From sequence record SRR20825006_3012: a stretch of DNA of 49,745 bases; one strand, given 5' to 3'. Made by a program: the position numbers and the translations under genes. The stretch's first letter is position 1. Each line of letters begins with the position of its first letter. The notes under the pieces were generated by a model. It was not told the DNA's origin, did not search any database, and saw only the letters and a program-made list of their open reading frames with translations. Positions 21,621 through 32,464 of this stretch are shown one piece after another.

Positions 21621-22769
21621 TCAAGCGATATTGTTGACCCGCTTGCTCTCACGGAACAGCTGATCCAGCTCGCCTTCGTAATACGCTTCAACACGCGGGT
21701 TCATTACCTTCTTCCACAGCGGCGGAATCAAGGCCAGTACATACATGGTGGCGTAGCCTGCCGGCAACTGCGGGCTTTCTTCGTAATGACGCAGCACCTG
21801 ATAACGACGCTTGGCATAGGCATGGTGATCGCTGTGGCGCTGCAGCTGAAACAGGGCCAGGTTGGTCAGCAGGTAATTGGAATTCCAGCTGTGCGCCGGG
21901 GTCACCCGCTCGAAGCGACCTTTGTCATTCACACGACGGTGCAGACCGTAGTGCTCGATGTAGTTGATGATTTCCAGTGCCAGCGCCGCAAAGAAACTCT
22001 GCCCCAGGAAGAACACGACACCCTGCCAGCCCCACAGCAGCCCGAAGGTCACCGCGAACAAGGCAGAAATGCTGTACCACCAGATCAGCTCATTGTAGAT
22101 GCTGATATTTTTCTTGCCCTTACGCTCCAGGTATTTCTTTTCCAGGCTCCAGGCGTTGATGAAGTTATGCACGAACGCTTTGGGAAGGAAATTGTAGAGG
22201 CTCTGGTTGTAGCGGCTTGAAGAGGCGTCATCCGGAGTAGAGACGTGCACATGGTGGCCGCGTACGTGCTCCACCTTGAAGCCCGCATAGGTCACGGTAG
22301 ACAGCAGCAGGCCGCCCATCCAGTTTTCTACTTTGGGATCCTTGTGGATCAGCTCATGGCCCAAGTTGATGGCGATAATGCCGCCCACGGTACCGATAGA
22401 CACGATCCAACCAATCTTGCCCAGCAACCCATAGTCATTGGTCATGAAAATGTGGCCGGCATAGAACAGCACCCCAATCCACACAAACCCCATGGCAATG
22501 GCTGACACCCGATAGAAGATTTCCTCACTCATGGTGGGCACCTGTACATCTTCACTGGGGTTGGTCGGGTCTTTCCCCACCAGATAGTCCAGTACCGGGA
22601 TAATTCCGAAAATGAAGACATACATGAACCAGGCCCAATAATCCTGAGTCCCGCTCTCCACGCCGATATAGGCCGAGAAAGGCACAAGCGGCACCATAAC
22701 CGCCCAAAAAGCCAGGTAGCCGTATTTTTTCATTTTTAGCATTACATCAGCATTCATATTCTCGAACAT
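21621..22769 (-). CDS. alkB: Alkane 1-monooxygenase (AlkB2-type)
   Basis: His boxes HELIH, EHVRGHH, NYIEHYGL (HYG), LQRHSDHHA; N-terminal TM helices; divergent GntR. Confidence 0.97.
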   Translation of the reverse strand: MFENMNADVMLKMKKYGYLAFWAVMVPLVPFSAYIGVESGTQDYWAWFMYVFIFGIIPVLDYLVGKDPTNPSEDVQVPTMSEEIFYRVSAIAMGFVWIGVLFYAGHIFMTNDYGLLGKIGWIVSIGTVGGIIAINLGHELIHKDPKVENWMGGLLLSTVTYAGFKVEHVRGHHVHVSTPDDASSSRYNQSLYNFLPKAFVHNFINAWSLEKKYLERKGKKNISIYNELIWWYSISALFAVTFGLLWGWQGVVFFLGQSFFAALALEIINYIEHYGLHRRVNDKGRFERVTPAHSWNSNYLLTNLALFQLQRHSDHHAYAKRRYQVLRHYEESPQLPAGYATMYVLALIPPLWKKVMNPRVEAYYEGELDQLFRESKRVNNIA

Positions 22770-23859: not shown

Positions 23860-25833
23860 ATGAAAATCACTCTTTTCTTCTCACTACTGCTACTGACGCT
23901 CACCGCCCAGGCAAACGGGCAACGTTGGCAGGACGAGGCTGCCACCGGCGCCTTGCTGCTGGCCGATGATCATGGCCAGATTCACCCCGCCACCCTGCTG
24001 GACACCGACGCCCACATTACCGTCAGCGGCCCAGTGGCAGAGGTCACGCTGACCCAGCGTTTTCACAATTCCAGCCAGCAGTTTCGCGAAGGGCGCTACC
24101 TGTTTCCGCTGCCGGAAAACGCCGCCGTGGACGGCATGGTGCTGACCATCGGAGACAGGCGAATTGTCGGCCGCATCGACGAGAAGGCCGAAGCTGAAAA
24201 GACCTACCGACAGGCCCGCGCCAGCGGCAAGAAGGCCAGCCTGGTCAGCCAGCAACGCCCCAACCTGTTTACCACCGCTGTGGCCAACATCGCCCCCGGC
24301 GAAACGGTGCAGGTAGAGCTGCATTACCAGCAGACCCTGCACGTGGATGGCCACCGCTTCCAGCTGCGCCTGCCCCTCACCCTGACGCCGCGCTTCACTC
24401 CGCCCACGGAGGCACCCCACACACTGGATTCCCTGCTACGCAACACCGTGGCAGCCCCCGGCGGCACGGCCGATGCCGGCACCGCGTCCATCCACATCGA
24501 CCTGGACGCCGGTGCGCGGCTGGCCACGCTGGGCAGCCCCAGCCATGCCATCCGCTACCAACGGCACGGACGGCGCTACACCATTACCCCAAAAGCCGGC
24601 GCCATCGCCATGGACCGGGATCTGCTGCTCAATTGGGAACTGGAAGACACTGGCGAACCACTGGTGGCCAGCTTCCACGAAAGCATCGACGGCGAGCACT
24701 ATGCGCTGTTGATGGTGGTTCCGCCGGAAGCCGGCCAGTCGACCACCCTGCCACGGGAAACCCTGTTCATCATCGACAGTTCCGGCTCCATGGGCGGTGC
24801 GCCCATGCGCCAGGCTAAGGCCAGCCTGCAACTGGCCCTCCAGCGCCTGAAGCCCGGCGACCGTTTCAACATCACCGACTTCGACAGCCAGCACACCCTG
24901 CTGTTTGAAACGCCGGCCACCGTCAGCGACAACAGTCGCCAACAAGCACAACAATTCGTGGCGGGCCTTCAAGCCAGTGGCGGCACTCATATGCTGCCCG
25001 CCCTCAGCGCCACCCTGAGCCAGCCCGCCAGCGACGGCTACCTGCGCCAGGTAATCTTTATCACCGACGGTGCGGTGGGCAACGAGCACGGCATCTTCCA
25101 GGCCCTGCACCAGCAACTCGGTGAAGCCCGCCTGTTTACCGTGGGTATCGGTTCCGCCCCCAACAGCCATTTCATGACCCGCGCCGCCCAGTTTGGGCGC
25201 GGCAGCTTTACCTATATCAACGACCAGAACCAGGTGCAGCAGGGCATGGACACCCTGTTTCGCCGCCTGGAATCACCGCTGATGCGCAACCTGCAGGTGC
25301 AACTCCCGAACGGCATCGTCGCCGAACGTTGGCCGCAAAAGCTGCCAGACTTGTATGCCGGTGAGCCCTTGCTGGTGGCCATGAAACTGTCCGCACCAAC
25401 GGAACACATCACCGTCAGCGGCTACAACACCCGACACTGGCAACAGCCGGTCACCTTGCCCACCGACAGCAACCACCCGGGCACCGCGAGCCTGTGGGCC
25501 CGGCGCAAGATCGCCGACCTGATGGACCGCATCACCCTGGGTGCCGCGGAAACGGATATCGCCCCACTGGTCACCGACGTGGCCCTGCGTCACCAGCTGG
25601 TCAGCCGCTACACCAGCTTTATCGCCGTAGAAGAGACCGTCTCCCGGCCCGCCCATGAGCCGCTGCTGCACGACACCGTTCGCAACCAGGCACCGCACGG
25701 CACGCAACGCGCTGCGGCCTGGCCCAGCACCGCTACACCGGCGCCACTATTGTGGCGGCTGGCTGGCGTGCTGCTGATCGTCTGTTTGCTGCTCTGGCTT
25801 CACCAGCGGAGGGCGAACCATGGTACGGCTTGA
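23860..25833 (+). CDS. Marine proteobacterial sortase target protein (VIT + vWA domains)
   Basis: GGAGG RBS; signal peptide; VIT (YLFPLPENAAV, QQRPNLFT); vWA MIDAS DSSGSM, GGT, ITDG; C-terminal WPSTAT + TM helix + RR. Confidence 0.9.
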   Translation: MKITLFFSLLLLTLTAQANGQRWQDEAATGALLLADDHGQIHPATLLDTDAHITVSGPVAEVTLTQRFHNSSQQFREGRYLFPLPENAAVDGMVLTIGDRRIVGRIDEKAEAEKTYRQARASGKKASLVSQQRPNLFTTAVANIAPGETVQVELHYQQTLHVDGHRFQLRLPLTLTPRFTPPTEAPHTLDSLLRNTVAAPGGTADAGTASIHIDLDAGARLATLGSPSHAIRYQRHGRRYTITPKAGAIAMDRDLLLNWELEDTGEPLVASFHESIDGEHYALLMVVPPEAGQSTTLPRETLFIIDSSGSMGGAPMRQAKASLQLALQRLKPGDRFNITDFDSQHTLLFETPATVSDNSRQQAQQFVAGLQASGGTHMLPALSATLSQPASDGYLRQVIFITDGAVGNEHGIFQALHQQLGEARLFTVGIGSAPNSHFMTRAAQFGRGSFTYINDQNQVQQGMDTLFRRLESPLMRNLQVQLPNGIVAERWPQKLPDLYAGEPLLVAMKLSAPTEHITVSGYNTRHWQQPVTLPTDSNHPGTASLWARRKIADLMDRITLGAAETDIAPLVTDVALRHQLVSRYTSFIAVEETVSRPAHEPLLHDTVRNQAPHGTQRAAAWPSTATPAPLLWRLAGVLLIVCLLLWLHQRRANHGTA

Positions 25834-26413
25834 ACGACGGCTGCTGGCTTTCAGCTTGGCAGCGCTGCTGGGGCTGGCAGGCTGGGCCAGCTGGCTGGAT
25901 GGCAAGGCCTGGCTGGCCCAGCACTTGATCGCCCACGCCTGGCAAACCACGCTTGCACAAGGTGCCCCCCAACGCCCCTGGCCCTGGGCAGACACCTGGC
26001 CGGTAGCGCGCCTCACCACCCCCGCCGGGGAAACTTTCTATGTGCTGGAAAGTACCAGTGGTGAAGCCCTGGCTTTCGGGCCCGGCCGGCTGGCCGGCGG
26101 CATCGGCAGCGACCAGGCCCTCACCCTGGCCGGCCACCGCGACACCCACTTCGCCTTTCTGGAAACGCTCGACGCTGGCCAGCCCCTCACTGTGCAATTG
26201 GCCAACGGTTCACAGAAACATTTTCAGATCAGCAGACAGCAAGTCATCAACAGCCAACAACACCCCCTACACATCCCTCGGGACGACCAACAGCTAATAC
26301 TGATCACCTGCTACCCCTTCGGTGCCCTTACTCCCGGCGGGCCCCTGCGCTACGTGGTCACCGCCACATCGGCACCCACCAGCAACACGGAAAATAACCA
26401 GACGGAACGATGA
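25820..26413 (+). CDS. Class GN (marine proteobacterial) sortase
   Basis: KAWLAQHLI, PWPWADTWPVARL, LAFGPG, catalytic H (AGHRDTHF), C (LITCYPF), R (LRY). Confidence 0.92.
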   Translation: MVRLERRLLAFSLAALLGLAGWASWLDGKAWLAQHLIAHAWQTTLAQGAPQRPWPWADTWPVARLTTPAGETFYVLESTSGEALAFGPGRLAGGIGSDQALTLAGHRDTHFAFLETLDAGQPLTVQLANGSQKHFQISRQQVINSQQHPLHIPRDDQQLILITCYPFGALTPGGPLRYVVTATSAPTSNTENNQTER

Positions 26414-26874: not shown

Positions 26875-27303
26875 TCATGAGGCATTCCGGCAAACAGCCA
26901 GCTTCGCCTGCACAAGGTAATCGCAGAACGCAACTACATCCGGATTACTAAACTCACTGGAAATGAACTCACCCGGTATCAGCCCTTCATCCCAGCGGGT
27001 CGTCACCAACAGAGGGTTGCCCCCATCATCGCCCGGGAAAATCTCCACCACCGCATGAGTCTGGTGAATATAGACATCACGGAGATCTTTACGGCAGCGA
27101 AAATCCTCCGTATCAGAAGCCAACTTGCACTGGTAGCCCGCGTCAGAAAAGAAATTATTAGCCTCGGAAAGCAGCGCCACATAGTTGACGGGAGGATCAG
27201 ACAAAGGCTCCAGCGTCTTGATGACATCACCTGAAACGTTGGTACAAGAGGAAAAAAACGGCAAGGAAAAAATGAATAGAAGGTGCATTACTCTTTTGGA
27301 CAT
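26875..27303 (-). CDS. Hypothetical lipoprotein
   Basis: Signal peptide ending FSS-C; 142-aa ORF at the edge of the AT-rich island. Confidence 0.65.
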   Translation of the reverse strand: MSKRVMHLLFIFSLPFFSSCTNVSGDVIKTLEPLSDPPVNYVALLSEANNFFSDAGYQCKLASDTEDFRCRKDLRDVYIHQTHAVVEIFPGDDGGNPLLVTTRWDEGLIPGEFISSEFSNPDVVAFCDYLVQAKLAVCRNAS

Positions 27304-27362
27304 AGAATATCCGCAACTGACAGAAAAAAATAAAAAGAATGGCCGACGCTTCAACCTGCACA

Positions 27363-27704
27363 TTACTGGGAGTTCTCATCTTCCCTTTTTTTCGCCTTAA
27401 TAGTGGAACCAAGCGTGAAAACAGCCGCCATGTAACCAAAGACAAAGAAAAACAGAGAAGCAATCAGGCTAATAATCACATTGCCACTGGATACAACACC
27501 ATTAGCGGCACACAAGATAAGGCATACAAAAGAAAAAGGCACAGAAATAGCGAGCAGGAAAACGCTAGCCATAACAATATCATCACTATGCACAGGAAAA
27601 TTGGAGTCGAACGCAATCCTGAGGCTTATCCCGACAAAGAAAACCAGAAGAGAGGCCAATATAAAAGACACTGCCACCCTGTGGGTTATCGTTATTGATT
27701 TCAC
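27363..27704 (-). CDS. Hypothetical 3-TM membrane protein (cassette-like)
   Basis: AT-rich 113-aa ORF with three hydrophobic stretches; GTG start overlaps a degenerate core site GCTAGGT. Confidence 0.65.
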   Translation of the reverse strand: MKSITITHRVAVSFILASLLVFFVGISLRIAFDSNFPVHSDDIVMASVFLLAISVPFSFVCLILCAANGVVSSGNVIISLIASLFFFVFGYMAAVFTLGSTIKAKKREDENSQ

Positions 27705-27735
27705 CTAGCACCATTTTTATACGAATAATTCGACA
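27702..27735 (-). mobile_element. Degenerate second copy of the attI-like site
   Basis: 23/34 ungapped identity to 30953-30986, including CGAA-N3-TTCG and a G(C)TAGGT core box. Confidence 0.5.
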
Positions 27736-27827
27736 GATAAAGGCCCGATTTTATATAAAAAGAATAAAGAGCGCCGATCAGTCTATCGAAAATAGAAGAT
27801 ATGGCGCCCCTTATTCCTATCGATTAA

Positions 27828-28157
27828 TTACTTATTCAGCTTAACGACATCACCAGAGACAGTGGTTTTATAACCGTTCAACACATAAGCCCAGAACCAG
27901 TTTTCCTGAACCTGTGTGTTAATCATTGCATCACCATTTTTGGATTCAATGGCCGCTTTTTGCGCCCGCACAAAACGGCTATTTTGCTGAATCGGAATAA
28001 AGTTAAACAGCATGATCCCGGTAGCAGTCGCTTCACCGTGACCGACAACAGTGTATTCATCACTGTTAAGTTGCTGTGTTTTCATTGGTGTTCCAGCACA
28101 ACCCGACAAAATTGCAGCTGCAAGAAAAGCGCCAGCCGTGAATTTCATTTTTTTCAT
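27828..28157 (-). CDS. Small lipoprotein (TRL/Bor-like)
   Basis: GAGGGG RBS; MKKMKFTAGAFLAAAILSG-C lipobox; G.ATA.GI.LF...AIESKNGDAMIN...V.G.VV pattern. Confidence 0.75.
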   Translation of the reverse strand: MKKMKFTAGAFLAAAILSGCAGTPMKTQQLNSDEYTVVGHGEATATGIMLFNFIPIQQNSRFVRAQKAAIESKNGDAMINTQVQENWFWAYVLNGYKTTVSGDVVKLNK

Positions 28158-28323: not shown

Positions 28324-28385
28324 AGCTAACGCTTATTAAAACCGCTGACACTACCCTCTCAGGCATTAGCCAGCCCTTGTTAGCT
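28324..28385 (-). mobile_element. attC-like site (partly degenerate)
   Basis: Minus strand AGCTAAC-AAGG-GCTGGCTA...TGTCAGC...GC-GTTAGCT, 3 nt after the stop of the 28389-28883 gene; right spacer longer than canonical. Confidence 0.65.
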
Positions 28386-28388
28386 TTT

Positions 28389-28883
28389 TCAATTTGGAAA
28401 ATGGAACACGGGAGCATCCTTACTATGACAATCACCGTAGTATCGGATATTGACACCCCCACCGTTTGGAAGCTGTGTCATCACAACGGAAAGACCCGAT
28501 TTATTATCGGTGCGCTTTGATAGAGGGTCATTAAATACCCAAACCTCATAAAACACTGGGGCGTCGTGCTTCACTATACGAGTTTCAGTCAATGCAGAAG
28601 ATTGAAGGCCACAATTCTTCATGATGGCGCCAAATATGTCCCGCCTGACCTGAGGCGCTAGCTCAGATATGCTTTTCCCGGGCACCCCTGCCCACTCAAC
28701 ATTTGCCACTGACCTCCCACCATCAGATGGCGTCACCACATATCGAAAGGGCGAAAATTGATTTTCCAGCGCCTGATTGGCCGAGCGTAAAGCTGTATCA
28801 CCAGTCGGATTTCCAGCACACCCTGAAAAAAACATCGCAGCAAATAGTACTATTGATAAATATCTGGTCATTAATAAATCCAT
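28389..28883 (-). CDS. Hypothetical lipoprotein (cassette gene)
   Basis: Signal peptide ending FFSG-C; followed by an attC-like site. Confidence 0.75.
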   Translation of the reverse strand: MDLLMTRYLSIVLFAAMFFSGCAGNPTGDTALRSANQALENQFSPFRYVVTPSDGGRSVANVEWAGVPGKSISELAPQVRRDIFGAIMKNCGLQSSALTETRIVKHDAPVFYEVWVFNDPLSKRTDNKSGLSVVMTQLPNGGGVNIRYYGDCHSKDAPVFHFPN

Positions 28884-28989
28884 CTTTAATTTTAATTCAG
28901 GGCCAGCGGATTAATACCTTATTTTTACCATTGAAACACGAGGCAAGCCCTGACCCTGAGTCCTTGCTTCCGCATAAATTGCACAAAGT

Positions 28990-29017
28990 TGACCGCCGAC
29001 TTGCAGCGCTTTTATAC
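28990..29017 (-). mobile_element. Broken attC (left half only)
   Basis: Minus strand GTATAA[lost C]AAGCGCTGCAAG 4 nt after the stop; GTATAAC is the R'' predicted from this cassette's GTTATAC start; no matching R' seen. Confidence 0.55.
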
Positions 29018-29021
29018 GCTC

Positions 29022-29483
29022 TCACTTCCAGAACTCCCAGAACCGCTTACTATTTCGCTTTTTCCATTCTATATACCTTCGCGAAACCCTCTGACTTATA
29101 ATTTTTTGGTTTTCCCATGTGTAGGGAACATGAAATTCTGAAGGTAACTTCTTAACCAATAACTCTGAGTAATCGGAAATATATTTTCCCTTATCGAAAT
29201 CGAAGTAATCTGAGGCAAACGCGTTAGCTTCTTCTGAGAGCATTTCGCCCATTAAACATCGGTCCCACCACTCATAGACATCGATAGCAGTTTTAGCCTG
29301 AGACTTGTATTTGTTGATCAGGTCCGAGCTTTCATATTCAAACTCATCACTGCATAAGTCATTTTCAATAAGCCAGCCAAGAAAAAAAGCCGTGTGAACA
29401 GAGGCTCTCTCTTCTGGAAGACCGCTATTCATCACAGTTTCATCATGATACTTCGCTTTGTCGTAGACAATGGAATTCCCCAT
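29022..29483 (-). CDS. Cassette 5 gene: hypothetical protein (YDKAKYH...HTAFFLGW motif)
   Basis: GAGG RBS just after the GTTATAC core; acidic 153-aa protein ending KRFWEFWK. Confidence 0.82.
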   Translation of the reverse strand: MGNSIVYDKAKYHDETVMNSGLPEERASVHTAFFLGWLIENDLCSDEFEYESSDLINKYKSQAKTAIDVYEWWDRCLMGEMLSEEANAFASDYFDFDKGKYISDYSELLVKKLPSEFHVPYTWENQKIISQRVSRRYIEWKKRNSKRFWEFWK

Positions 29484-29492
29484 CTTTACCTC

Positions 29493-29544
29493 GTATAACG
29501 CCCAGCACAGCCGCCGAAGGTCGGCCTGCTGCTACTTGTTATGT
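29493..29544 (-). mobile_element. attC site (52 bp)
   Basis: ACATAAC-AAGTA-GCA(G)CAG...CTGTGC-TGGGC-GTTATAC: R''/L''/L'/R' boxes, 5-nt spacers, extrahelical base. Confidence 0.92.
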
Positions 29545-29858
29545 TTATTCAGGCGCCTAAATAACGCCCTTAAATTTAATCCAAACCCAAAGAAATTTGG
29601 TTTTAGTTCGACTATATCTTCCGACTCACCTTTATCCTCGGTACTTTCTTGAGCTGCAAGCCACTCTCTACCCAGCATAGTTATTCTGGGCCCCAAATAG
29701 CACAAGCCATCATCGCTACAGGCATCAGCAGCTTCAACATAACCTATGTCATAAAGCTCTTTTAGTATCCGAACATCAACTTCACCAGAAGACTCACTCA
29801 CAATTGAAATGTTCGGATTAGAAATCAAGTATCTCAGCAAGGAAGAATGCTCACTCAA
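29532..29858 (-). CDS. Cassette 4 gene: hypothetical protein, possible winged-helix
   Basis: AAGGGG RBS + TTG; LKELYDIGYV...ITMLGREWL wing-like motif; C-terminal ELKPNFFGFGLNL; stop lies inside attC. Confidence 0.78.
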   Translation of the reverse strand: MSEHSSLLRYLISNPNISIVSESSGEVDVRILKELYDIGYVEAADACSDDGLCYLGPRITMLGREWLAAQESTEDKGESEDIVELKPNFFGFGLNLRALFRRLNKHNK

Positions 29859-29875
29859 TATGATTCCCCTTTAAA

Positions 29876-29951
29876 ACATAACGCCTTGCGCAGCGGCGCG
29901 AGGAACGAGCGTCCGGCCCAGAAGGGGCTTTACTGCTGCTATTTGTTATAT
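29876..29951 (-). mobile_element. attC site (76 bp)
   Basis: ATATAAC-AAATA-GCAGCAG...CTGCGC-AAGGC-GTTATGT. Confidence 0.92.
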
Positions 29952-30241
29952 TTTTTTCTCGAAACTATTACATCTATGATAATGGATGCTCCTGCAGCAC
30001 CAAACATAGCCCAAAGTATATGCGTAAACCTGCCTGACCACCCTGGAATATCCGTCAACAAAACTTCCTTAAAGGAAACACCTGCACCATAGGAGATAAA
30101 AAGCGCTACTAGAAGGAAAACACACGCTGCCAAGCAATACCCAACCGTATAAATTCTCTCTTCGTTTCCAGATGCTCGCTGCCAAACCAAAAGCAGTCCA
30201 CCAAGAAATACGCTAAACCACAAATCACCCAAGACCCTCAT
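29939..30241 (-). CDS. Cassette 3 gene: 3-TM hypothetical membrane protein
   Basis: ATG 7 nt after the GTTATAT core; three hydrophobic segments; stop inside attC. Confidence 0.75.
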   Translation of the reverse strand: MRVLGDLWFSVFLGGLLLVWQRASGNEERIYTVGYCLAACVFLLVALFISYGAGVSFKEVLLTDIPGWSGRFTHILWAMFGAAGASIIIDVIVSRKKYNK

Positions 30242-30248
30242 CCCCAAA

Positions 30249-30299
30249 ATATAACGCCGCAAGCAGCGGCCGCAGCTCCGATGCCTTGCCTTGTTACGG
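30249..30299 (-). mobile_element. attC site (51 bp)
   Basis: CCGTAAC-AAGGC-AAG(G)CAT-CGG...CCG-CTGCTT-GCGGC-GTTATAT. Confidence 0.9.
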
Positions 30300-30611
30300 T
30301 TTCTCACCACTCTTTATTTCCACGGTAAAGCCAATACCATTCCTCGTCTTTACACCTGAAAGAGAGAGCCCCATTTTTTGCAACTCTTCATCTTCTGAAC
30401 AAGTGAAAACCTCGCTCTCTGAGCACCAAAGCCTGAATGCCACAAGCTTTGCTCCTTCATGATCCTGAGTGCAGCGCCATAGCTTTCCATGCTCATCTTC
30501 CACTGCATATACCGGGTAGGCTCTTTTAACTACAGCTGGATCTATATACATGGAAATTTCCATGCCTTCATAAGTAATGTCGTTTCCTAGAACTCTTACT
30601 GGGTTTTGCAT
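30294..30611 (-). CDS. Cassette 2 gene: hypothetical protein
   Basis: GGTGG RBS + ATG after the GTTACGG core; TAA stop is part of R'' (CCGTAAC). Confidence 0.75.
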   Translation of the reverse strand: MQNPVRVLGNDITYEGMEISMYIDPAVVKRAYPVYAVEDEHGKLWRCTQDHEGAKLVAFRLWCSESEVFTCSEDEELQKMGLSLSGVKTRNGIGFTVEIKSGEKP

Positions 30612-30628
30612 AAACCACCATTTTGTAT

Positions 30629-30676
30629 CCGTAACGCTCTGGTCACGCGCTCGTCGCGTGCACCTTCTTGTTAAGT
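30629..30676 (-). mobile_element. attC site (48 bp)
   Basis: ACTTAAC-AAGAA-GGT(G)CAC-GCG-ACGAG-CGC-GTGACC-AGAGC-GTTACGG. Confidence 0.9.
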
Positions 30677-30949
30677 ACCTTCTGAGCCAGCACTCAACCT
30701 CTGAATCAGTTCTACGCAGCAAATAGTGGTAAACATATAGCGCCCTGCTTCGGAAGCCACCTCTACCACCACCCCTTCACTATCTAGAACCTTGTCTGCG
30801 ACAACCCAATCTAGGAGTTTTTGCTCCAATTTAAGGTGAGAAAAATCTTCACCGAGCATGACCACTTTGGCCGACACGTACTGATTTGGGCCAGAATCAA
30901 ACCTGACCGTGTCGCCCAACAATATTCGCTCACCCGATTCATAGTTCAT
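30671..30949 (-). CDS. Cassette 1 gene: hypothetical protein (SH3-like beta-barrel pattern)
   Basis: MNYESGERILLGDTVRF...AKVV...GVVVE; TAA stop is part of R'' (ACTTAAC). Confidence 0.75.
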   Translation of the reverse strand: MNYESGERILLGDTVRFDSGPNQYVSAKVVMLGEDFSHLKLEQKLLDWVVADKVLDSEGVVVEVASEAGRYMFTTICCVELIQRLSAGSEGT

Positions 30950-30952
30950 AAG

Positions 30953-30989
30953 CACTTAACAGCGTATTCAGTCGAACGGTTCGACATAA
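30953..30989 (-). mobile_element. attI-like site heading the cassette array
   Basis: G|TTAAGT core (complement of cassette 1 R'' ACTTAAC) with no upstream attC hairpin; instead preceded by TTATGTCGAACCGTTCGAC. Confidence 0.7.
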
Positions 30990-31141
30990 TTCTTAACCAG
31001 GCAGCACTCAGATCAACCAAAATATCCAGCATGAACAATGATATGGAGCACCGTCGAGAATTTATCTCGTCTGACAAAAGTCGACATAACGGGTTATTTC
31101 CTGAGTGAACTTGGTTCCCCTTATCCCTGGAAATCACTTTA

Positions 31142-31154
31142 TATCAACCGCTTA
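31142..31154 (+). promoter_or_regulatory. IHF-binding consensus
   Basis: TATCAA-CCGC-TTA exactly matches WATCAANNNNTTR, ~180 bp upstream of the attI-like core. Confidence 0.5.
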
Positions 31155-31234
31155 GATTTTTATGTAAGCCATATCCTACAAATTCGCACCCGATTCTGTT
31201 GAGCACGGGCTGGTCAGGATTTGGCTGCACCAAG

Positions 31235-31261
31235 GTTCGCACCTCAAGAGGTACTCCTACA
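31235..31261 (-). repeat. GTAG-family REP copy
   Basis: GTTCGCACCTCAAGAGGTACTCCTACA. Confidence 0.7.
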
Positions 31262-31274
31262 GAAAAGCAGGGAC

Positions 31275-31303
31275 AAAAAAACGCGGCCTTGGCCGCGTTT
31301 TTT
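31275..31303. terminator. Bidirectional terminator after acyl-CoA dehydrogenase
   Basis: AAAAAAACGCGGCC-TT-GGCCGCGTTTTTT. Confidence 0.9.
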
Positions 31304-31324: not shown

Positions 31325-32464
31325 TTAACGCCCGATAATGTCCCGGGAGATAATTTCTTTCATGATTTCGCTGGTGCCGCCGTAGATACGCTGGATGCGG
31401 GCGTCCACGTAATCGCGGGAGATGGGGTATTCCTGCATGTAGCCGTAACCACCGAACAGTTGCAGACATTTGTCGGCGACCACGCCTTGCAGCTCGGTGG
31501 TGGTGAGCTTGGCGATGGAGGCGTTGGTGGCGGTGAGTTCGTTGCGATCGTACTGGTCGATGCACTGCTCACCGTAGGCGCGGTTAACCACGACCTGTGC
31601 GTGCAGGTCCGCCAGCACGAAGCGGGTGTTTTGCAGGCTGGAGATCGGCTTGCCAAACGCCATGCGCTCCTTGGTGTATTCGATGGTGCGCTCGATCATG
31701 CCTTCGCAAGCAGCGATGGCGCCCAGGGCCAGGATCAGGCGTTCGCGGGGCAGTTCGTTCATCAGGTTGGCGAAGCCTTTGCCTTCACCACCAAGAATCT
31801 GGTCGGCGCCGACTTTCACGTTTTCGAAGAACAGCTCGGAGGTATCCGCCGCGTGGTGGCCCATTTTTTCCAGGTTGCGGCCACGGGCAAAGCCGTCCAG
31901 GGCGCAATCCACGGTGAACAGGGTCATGCCTTTGGAACCGGCATTGGGGTCGGTCTTGGTGGCGAGCACGATCACGTCGCAGTGCTGGCCGTTGGTGATG
32001 AAGGTTTTCTGGCCGCTGATACTGTAGCCATCGCCGTCCTTGTCGGCACGGGTTTTCATGCCCTGCAGGTCAGAACCGGCACCAGGTTCGGTCATGCCGA
32101 TGGCGCCTACGGCTTCACCGGTCACCATTTTCGGCAACCAGGCTTGTTTCTGCTCTTCGTTGCCCAGGTGCAGGATGTAAGGAGCGACGATGTCGGAGTG
32201 CACGGAAATGTTAGACGCCAATGCACCAAAACCGGCGCGGGAGGCTTCTTCCACAATCACCGCAGACAGGCGGAAGTTGGCGCCGAAGCCGCCGTATTCT
32301 TCCGGGACGTCCACACACAGCAGGCCATTTTCGCCCATCTTGTTCCACAGCTCGCGGGGGAACATTTCGGCTTTTTCCCACTGGTCGTAGTGAGGAGCGA
32401 CTTCGTTTTCGAGGAATTTTTTGACGTTATCGCGAAACAGTTCGATTTCGTTCTGATCAAGCAT
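31325..32464 (-). CDS. Acyl-CoA dehydrogenase (long-chain type)
   Basis: IGMTEPGAGSDL, GQKTFITNG, DTSELFF, QLFGGYGYMQEY, IYGGTSEIMK. Confidence 0.95.
   Translation of the reverse strand: MLDQNEIELFRDNVKKFLENEVAPHYDQWEKAEMFPRELWNKMGENGLLCVDVPEEYGGFGANFRLSAVIVEEASRAGFGALASNISVHSDIVAPYILHLGNEEQKQAWLPKMVTGEAVGAIGMTEPGAGSDLQGMKTRADKDGDGYSISGQKTFITNGQHCDVIVLATKTDPNAGSKGMTLFTVDCALDGFARGRNLEKMGHHAADTSELFFENVKVGADQILGGEGKGFANLMNELPRERLILALGAIAACEGMIERTIEYTKERMAFGKPISSLQNTRFVLADLHAQVVVNRAYGEQCIDQYDRNELTATNASIAKLTTTELQGVVADKCLQLFGGYGYMQEYPISRDYVDARIQRIYGGTSEIMKEIISRDIIGR

Follow-up and report, generated by a model that had tools for sequence, protein, structure and literature searches.

An integrase-less cassette array headed by its own attI: a probable satellite platform of a multi-locus integron in Alcanivorax

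The locus described here raises the question of whether an array of gene cassettes with no integrase beside it is an orphaned fragment or part of an integron that can still receive cassettes. The array occupies positions 28324–30960 of a 49,745-nucleotide stretch of sequence record SRR20825006_3012 (the whole stretch is called the window; features lie on its minus strand unless stated otherwise). [quoted passage not shown] (2016, PMC4889954) means two or more attC sites and no nearby intI, the gene for the integrase IntI. The array conforms to this definition, with four intact, one half and one decayed attC and no intI nearby; the adjacent intI that marks a complete integron is not present. 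The idea of an orphan fragment could not be retained, since the array is headed by an attI and an upstream region that belong to the genus of its host, the marine oil degrader Alcanivorax. A CALIN by definition, the array probably forms part of a multi-locus integron as one of its satellite platforms, with an attI proposed to be competent for insertion. Genomes, loci and sequencing runs are labelled G, L and X, respectively, and genome-wide statements rest on G001, the nearest genome, and other relatives.

Judged by its sequence, the non-coding DNA upstream of the array is a module of about 260 bp that ends in a genuine attI, which had been overlooked at first reading. That reading had seen in the upstream 360 bp only a repeat and a housekeeping terminator; the positions of both were recovered, but the region is not empty, as it holds the module. 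The left edge of the module (31196–31208) was placed by alignment of 37 upstream regions and is sharp at 31208; in intI-linked copies it lies 40–50 bp ahead of the intI start, and it may correspond to the −35 element of the integrase promoter. Inside the edge, a palindromic box (31163–31180) departs from the UvrY/GacA consensus TGTAAG-N6-CTTACA at one of its 12 specified positions, and a site resembling that of integration host factor (IHF) lies on the plus strand (31142–31154), an exact match to the consensus WATCAANNNNTTR. The next element, 130 bp upstream of the crossover, is a conserved block (31080–31101) that contains a third repeat of GTTRRRY-like form; it is followed by an attI direct repeat with a palindrome (30971–30992). 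The attI simple site itself (30954–30972) consists of a degenerate L box, a 5-bp spacer and the R box GTTAAGT, with the G|TT crossover at 30960/30959. The R box of GTTRRRY form, the 5-bp spacer, the degenerate L box and the upstream direct repeats give an attI1-like anatomy; the available text on attI1 likewise describes an R box, an L box and upstream direct repeats (PMC12901181). Relatives carry two repeats spaced by 16 bp, of which the window allele has one. This one-repeat allele is not an assembly slip, as it recurs at two loci, L239 and L241, and in two sequencing runs, X12 and X1 (the latter possibly the source of the window). GTTGAGC at the left edge was considered as a second crossover and ruled out, since conservation continues past it.

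The two features outside the module are a terminator-like hairpin (31275–31303), 3' of the acyl-CoA dehydrogenase gene and similar to hairpins of relatives with or without the module, and a REP-like repeat (31237–31261) with many short matches in G001, which we take to be a repetitive extragenic palindromic (REP) sequence. Mobilisation of the module by REP, or as an element resembling a miniature inverted-repeat transposable element, was not supported: not every copy has a REP-like repeat ahead of it, and a similar repeat is still present in G022 despite a decayed module. Further upstream, the acyl-CoA dehydrogenase gene (31325–32464; Pfam Acyl-CoA_dh domains) forms the conserved flank on the upstream side of this locus ('loc2'), a flank shared by 20 modules.

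Comparison of window positions 30940–31240 with genomes of the genus revealed matches in 22 of 24, often at several places. The final approximately 50 bp of the module are near-invariant up to G|TTA, and all copies diverge just after it. The same 51-mer attI lies about 300 bp upstream of intI, in divergent orientation, in all seven clade-A integrase loci, and the clade-A IntI protein tested scores above the TIGR02249 cut-off. The intI genes of clades B and C have other attI types next to them and lack the 51-mer. A sequence model of the attI (R1, built from 31 sites; hit threshold E<1e-7) gave 65 matches in 22 of the 24 genus genomes, 7 of them adjoining an intact intI and 58 not. Outside the genus it gave weak matches in three of 13 other genomes of the family, and a further 24 genomes from the order had no match. 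Summed over the 24 genus genomes, a core 12-mer occurred 135 times, compared to two occurrences of the reversed control; when 26 core matches were inspected in G001, G007 and G019, two were chance-like and three unclassified or decayed. In four genomes assembled as single contigs, attI cores numbered five in G022 (no intact intI), nine in G007 (intI split by an insertion sequence, IS), seven in G019 and eight in G013 (one intact intI each). The exact entry-site pattern had 27 matches in 185,579 species genomes, all in Alcanivorax or Alloalcanivorax except one unclassified record, and the type-A attI pattern, that of the window, had none in viral contigs.

Weak matches and matches of the palindromic box alone exposed other attI types. 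Types B and C adjoin clade-B and clade-C integrases, and type D, by eye, resembles the attI of a further integrase clade in G033. The box-only matches were also considered as small RNA genes, a reading that was dropped since many of those listed instead head type-D attI or decayed modules. All three intI clades share one master locus behind gcvPB (21 genomes). Across L067–L086 at this locus the integrase clades alternate, each with its own attI type; A and B are 67% identical, and C about 46%. The rule in the Alcanivorax genomes compared is at most one integron integrase, at gcvPB, plus several copies of the attI with its upstream region that lack intI and occupy conserved positions between genes, 3' of housekeeping genes. 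The satellite sites recur, for instance behind acyl-CoA dehydrogenase, glmS and ureG and near oadB. The hot spot directly behind the 3' end of glmS (L115, L033, L123, L230) is the known target spot of Tn7. At the window locus the module is present in 14 of 17 genus genomes, persists as a decayed relic in G022 and is absent from G009 and G005; in the sister genus a type-C-like attI, by eye, occupies this locus in four of 11 genomes. Among 30 core-pattern loci from five genomes outside the genus, repeated attI-like heads were found in G033 and G054, and one or two are possible in G057; core-pattern matches in G043, G053 and G057 were mostly chance-like. The heads in G054 (L297, L302, L312) and G033 (L298, L303, L308, L313, L318, L322) stand away from intI and belong to a different family and a different genus.

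The array below the attI is an island of low guanine-plus-cytosine (GC) content (0.45, compared to 0.59 outside), in which small minus-strand open reading frames (ORFs) are parted by TAAC...GCGTTA elements. Cassette 1 (30635–30959) contains a 92-aa ORF (30671–30949) and a 48-bp attC (30629–30676), cassette 2 (30255–30634) a 105-aa ORF (30294–30611) and a 51-bp attC (30249–30299), cassette 3 (29882–30254) a hydrophobic 100-aa ORF (29939–30241) and a 76-bp attC (29876–29951), and cassette 4 (29499–29881) a 108-aa ORF (29532–29858) and a 52-bp attC (29493–29544). Cassette 5 (28970–29498) encodes a DUF7832 protein (29022–29483; Pfam PF25191, E 1e-33) and closes with half an attC (28970–29017). These five cassettes had been recognised in the original prediction; the same range also holds a sixth ORF, lipoprotein-like and 164 aa long (28389–28883), with a decayed 62-bp attC-like site (28324–28385) that folds poorly (−5.3 kcal/mol), together probably an old cassette 6 (28324–28883). 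Two more low-GC ORFs (27828–28157 and 27363–27704, within 27363–28157; GC 0.44 compared to 0.59) are possibly older cassettes. No attC was found for either of them, and among the loci examined G001 alone has them. The conserved flank gene downstream (26875–27363) has homologs of 45–56% identity 3' of the array in seven other genomes. The proteins of cassettes 1–4 and 6 gave no Pfam, NCBIfam or PADLOC family, and cassette 5 had no relative among viral contigs. In the 24 genus genomes the genes of cassettes 1–4 were unmatched, save that G019 has a piece of cassette 1 at 73%; the remaining matches cover attC only.

The five pairs of opening and closing cores that had been read on the minus strand were all present. 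In the four cassettes with an intact attC, the opening core is the exact complement of the closing core at 7/7 positions. Among 268 cassettes of related loci, a set in which one four-cassette array was entered twice, 229 matched in this way, compared to a mean of 17 when the opening cores were permuted. The chance for a single cassette is thus 0.064, and four consecutive matches have a probability of about 1.6e-5 by chance. The bottom strands of attC1–4 form hairpins, as had been anticipated, with energies of −9.2 to −14.3 kcal/mol; compared to shuffled sequences the z-scores reach only −0.8 to −2.1, which makes folding energy alone weak evidence. Two other loci contain a 118-bp attC family whose 5' half corresponds to the closing site of cassette 5 (86–88% identity over 40–42 nt).

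Three of the four intact attCs (48, 51 and 52 bp) fall below the length criterion of 57–141 bp, the range quoted in the available text of PMC3053210. Sites shorter than 55 bp made up 47 of 176 called by the stricter of two attC scans and are present in intI-linked and satellite arrays alike. The 48-bp family could be examined through 25 distinct sites, found with a pattern in which cores, bulged base and length were fixed and stem letters left free. The nine-pair stem was 99.6–99.7% paired, compared to 24–63% in slid controls, with two-sided changes at seven of the nine pairs. The fold has one bulged C, six pairs and then a loop with T as the adjacent base, and the usual second extrahelical T of attC appears to have been absorbed into this loop. 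Of 301 genomes from the order, 30 have matches to the 48-bp pattern, and several of these matches, mostly outside the family, are unlike hairpins; an Rfam scan gave four chance-level matches and no RNA family. The mixed origin first suggested for the attCs was not borne out, as the 48-, 51/52- and 75/76-bp types recur over Alcanivorax arrays, both intI-linked and intI-less. As a separate observation, a cassette family of about 294 bp with a 57–58-bp attC is repeated up to six times per array at 78–97% identity in L080 (G010), L083 (G005) and L231 (G007).

The cassettes at this locus change between strains. In G001, whose flanks are 97–98% identical to those of the window, one different cassette replaces cassettes 1–4, and in L240 and L242 five different ones do so. 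The block changes are bounded exactly by the G|TT of attI and the opening core of cassette 5, in agreement with the IntI-type G|TT crossovers that had been predicted. Cassette 5, kept in G001, L240 and L242, is the fixed end of the variable block, where it would stay because its attC is broken. The first cassette at the window locus differs in 17 of 17 other genomes. Metagenome runs X11–X13 contain loose ends at the crossover points 30957, 29496/7, 30253 and 30296. For typed attI sites of all types, an attC was called downstream at 80 of 100, and at 71 of these 80 the first cassette matched its closing core 7/7. In G009, whose clade-A intI is intact, two pairs of different satellites share cassettes that are 100% identical, although an assembly artefact is possible there, and satellite cassettes of G013 and G004 are 96.6–97.9% identical to cassettes that other genomes carry in intI-linked arrays. 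Since related genomes carry several sites, each with different cassettes, the pattern suggests that one distant enzyme serves all of them.

In established integron chemistry, cassettes are excised through attC bottom strands and inserted at attI. For the satellite platform proposed here, IntI from the master locus, or IntI brought in transiently, would excise cassettes through their folded attC bottom strands and insert them at the G|TT of any resident attI copy, including that of the window; such action in trans would account for both the turnover and the sharing of cassettes. A satellite would then comprise a docking site and probably a promoter (the putative cassette promoter, Pc). As IntI would insert at any attI copy, each satellite may be a recipient and probably an expression slot, beyond a mere store. 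The satellites are presumably copies of the master platform that later lost intI.

Evidence on this origin came from a tree of 58 type-A modules (types B–D and modules with less than 300 bp of upstream DNA were left out). The modules group by locus, with 15 changes compared to 35.7 after shuffling, while loci are not single clades and the window locus needs six changes. Three satellite loci of G009 and G022 nest among intI-linked modules and retain 103–135 bp of intI, from which they are read as recent copies of the master platform. One of these intI fragments abuts the end of an IS3-family element, and from this single locus IS-assisted transfer may be inferred as the copying mechanism. The intI at the G022 master locus is internally deleted. 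Tandem platforms were also observed in L090 (G022) and L113 (G009), where the type-A attI of a newer type-A module is preceded by an older platform: first a type-C attI that has a GacA-like box, next the remnant of a cassette, and then an IS3-like end and a 5' fragment of intI.

A search of the window with 40 IntI queries (tblastn, E≤0.01), covering about 18.8 kb on the upstream side of the array and 28 kb on the downstream side, gave no IntI match, which bears out the original prediction. Several observations weigh against an active satellite platform. No intI remnant was found at the locus. G001 has only a frameshifted clade-B intI and not the clade-A enzyme that is paired with the attI type of the window. 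Genomes with clade-B or clade-C intI also hold loaded type-A or type-D satellites, which would need cross-recognition. The 20 of 100 typed sites at which no attC was called in the available DNA include some from short loci or contig ends. Model R1 was derived from 31 of the sites it recovers, and kin genomes are not independent. A scan for sigma-70 consensus promoters gave five matches, compared to 6.7 expected, none of them on the cassette strand upstream of attI. Moreover, L239 and L241 carry the same four cassettes and the same one-repeat allele as the window, and for this reason, together with the missing direct repeat, the window allele may be dormant.

This last point can be stated as an explanation in its own right, in which the platform is active in the genus while the loss of the direct repeat and the lack of a working integrase froze cassettes 1–4 in the window allele. 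The shared allele and array of the window, L239 and L241 speak for it, as do the frameshifted intI of G001 and the sequencing runs, since among the runs listed 11 contain at least 80% of the words of the stretch. Identical arrays may, however, merely reflect one recent, widespread clone, and the window allele retains an intact simple site and an intact repeat 30 bp upstream. We regard dormancy as possible, at somewhat less than even odds, and it is compatible with satellite platforms at the level of the genus. A more sweeping alternative holds that the satellites are all relics of integrons that were once complete, with arrays assembled when intI still lay next to them, and that strains now differ only by homologous replacement or deletion and not by any action of IntI in trans. 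The intI fragments at three satellite loci, the deleted intI of G022, the loaded arrays of that genome despite its lack of an intact intI, and the grouping of modules by locus are what such relics would leave. Set against this, an intI-less module is common to 14 of 17 genus genomes at the window locus and yet all first cassettes differ; close relatives differ by entire cassette sets that end at G|TT, and different satellites of G009 have identical first cassettes. Relics are accordingly held to be unlikely as the general explanation.

The remaining alternative, implied by the first reading, is that cassettes accumulated at a secondary genomic site without attI (the attG route, giving a CALIN or a single attC lacking an integrase, SALIN). 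The window has no intI, and the route has been demonstrated for IntI1 according to the available text of 10.1101/2022.09.11.507474. As described in the same text, however, attG sites differ from attI, while the entry site here is the 51-mer that flanks intI, inside a conserved 260-bp module. Because the target is an attI, the attG route does not apply, and we give it hardly any weight. The satellite platform is thus preferred, and a broader model built on it is offered tentatively: a distributed Alcanivorax integron in which one replaceable master integrase might feed 5–10 dispersed attI platforms that act as separate first-position slots, with minimal attCs of 48–52 bp, types A and D under GacS/GacA and IHF, and a clade-A integrase without the usual LexA box.

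The regulatory part of this model draws on the module upstream of attI. A UvrY/GacA-like box with at most one mismatch was found in 31 of 41 type-A, seven of eight type-D, one of 31 type-C and none of 20 type-B modules, and in no shuffles. IHF-like sites occurred in 28 of 41 type-A modules, compared to 1.8% of shuffles. With a predicted box and an IHF-like site downstream, the window arrangement fits the layout of a GacA/UvrY promoter; in Escherichia coli csrB, as given in the available text of PMC4682653, the consensus TGTAAG-N6-CTTACA forms an inverted repeat of 18 bp that lies far upstream and has an IHF site on its downstream side. G001 encodes a UvrY/SirA/GacA equivalog upstream of uvrC (300.5 bits, cut-off 280). 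A LexA-like box lies ahead of 5/5 clade-B and 5/5 clade-C intI and of none of seven clade-A intI. Control of the module by GacA and IHF is inferred from these patterns; against it, the intI-linked type-A copies have a more degenerate GacA-like box, and another regulator could bind the palindrome at 31163–31180. Six RNA runs contain 5–9% of the words of the window, and X1 is guessed to be an RNA run. Separately, in L182 (G022) a near-perfect GacA/UvrY-like box is followed, about 100–250 bp downstream, by a candidate small RNA, a short stretch rich in hairpins that leads to a terminator-like run.

Farther from the array, a gene pair at 23860–26413 of the window encodes a marine proteobacterial sortase target protein (TIGR03788) and a class GN sortase (TIGR03784). 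A 382-aa ORF at 21621–22769 has histidine motifs that we take to resemble those of AlkB alkane hydroxylase, with no NCBIfam match at E≤1e-10. Outside the window, the ORF of the first cassette in the G014 integron (L069:5027–6193) encodes 388 aa, contains a CxxxCxxC motif, is presumably radical-SAM-like and is followed by an IS3 element.

Comparison with known systems is limited to the parts of the cited sources that were available. The array resembles the CALINs of PMC4889954 in having at least two attC, no intI nearby, a short array, cassette genes of no known function and a possible link to an IntI elsewhere. It differs in having its own attI and upstream region, recipient behaviour and several copies per genome; in that paper the attI search was limited to classes 1–3, the attI of most integrons being described as unknown and not searchable, and split CALINs are treated as donors cut off from Pc. 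Cassette capture from CALINs in trans is described in PMC9668308. The nearest published pattern is that of the Xanthomonas CALINs (10.1101/2025.06.18.660453), where one master intI locus is accompanied by CALINs at a few conserved chromosomal spots; the text of that report describes no attI and takes them as traces of ancestral activity. SALINs at attG (10.1101/2022.09.11.507474) are likewise distant from intI and placed by IntI in trans, but at scattered sites that are not attI copies, whereas the Alcanivorax target is a conserved attI module. In Delta-attI-type cassettes of mobile integrons (PMC12901181), extra attI pieces serve as IntI substrates; these are cassette ends inside class 1/2 arrays, whereas the Alcanivorax copies head separate, distant chromosomal arrays. 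The csrB promoter activated by UvrY/GacA (PMC4682653) shares the 18-bp inverted repeat and the IHF site downstream, whereas the predicted Alcanivorax box precedes attI and cassettes and not a small RNA. Sedentary chromosomal integrons share the attI anatomy, the conserved master locus (gcvPB, 21 genomes) and the genus-typical attC families, but here there is no adjacent intI, there are many attI per genome, and three intI clades alternate at one master locus. No description of Alcanivorax integrons or of multi-locus intI-less attI platforms was found in a literature search that covered subscription journals poorly and excluded supplements, and IntegronFinder tables may list such loci as CALINs.

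CALINs are common, and published surveys could not look for attI beyond classes 1–3. With a CALIN that has a recognisable attI and turnover at the crossover, it becomes directly testable, in a cultivable and non-pathogenic genus, whether IntI acts in trans on an attI far away. The 48-bp attC narrows the minimal structure that IntI may need, and scans bound by length may miss such sites. Several attI per genome would let a cell keep several cassettes in the first position simultaneously, and a GacA-type box would link their control to a lifestyle regulator instead of the SOS response. If the distributed integron proves true, many CALINs of other bacteria would be satellite platforms that are active and in which nobody has looked for an attI.

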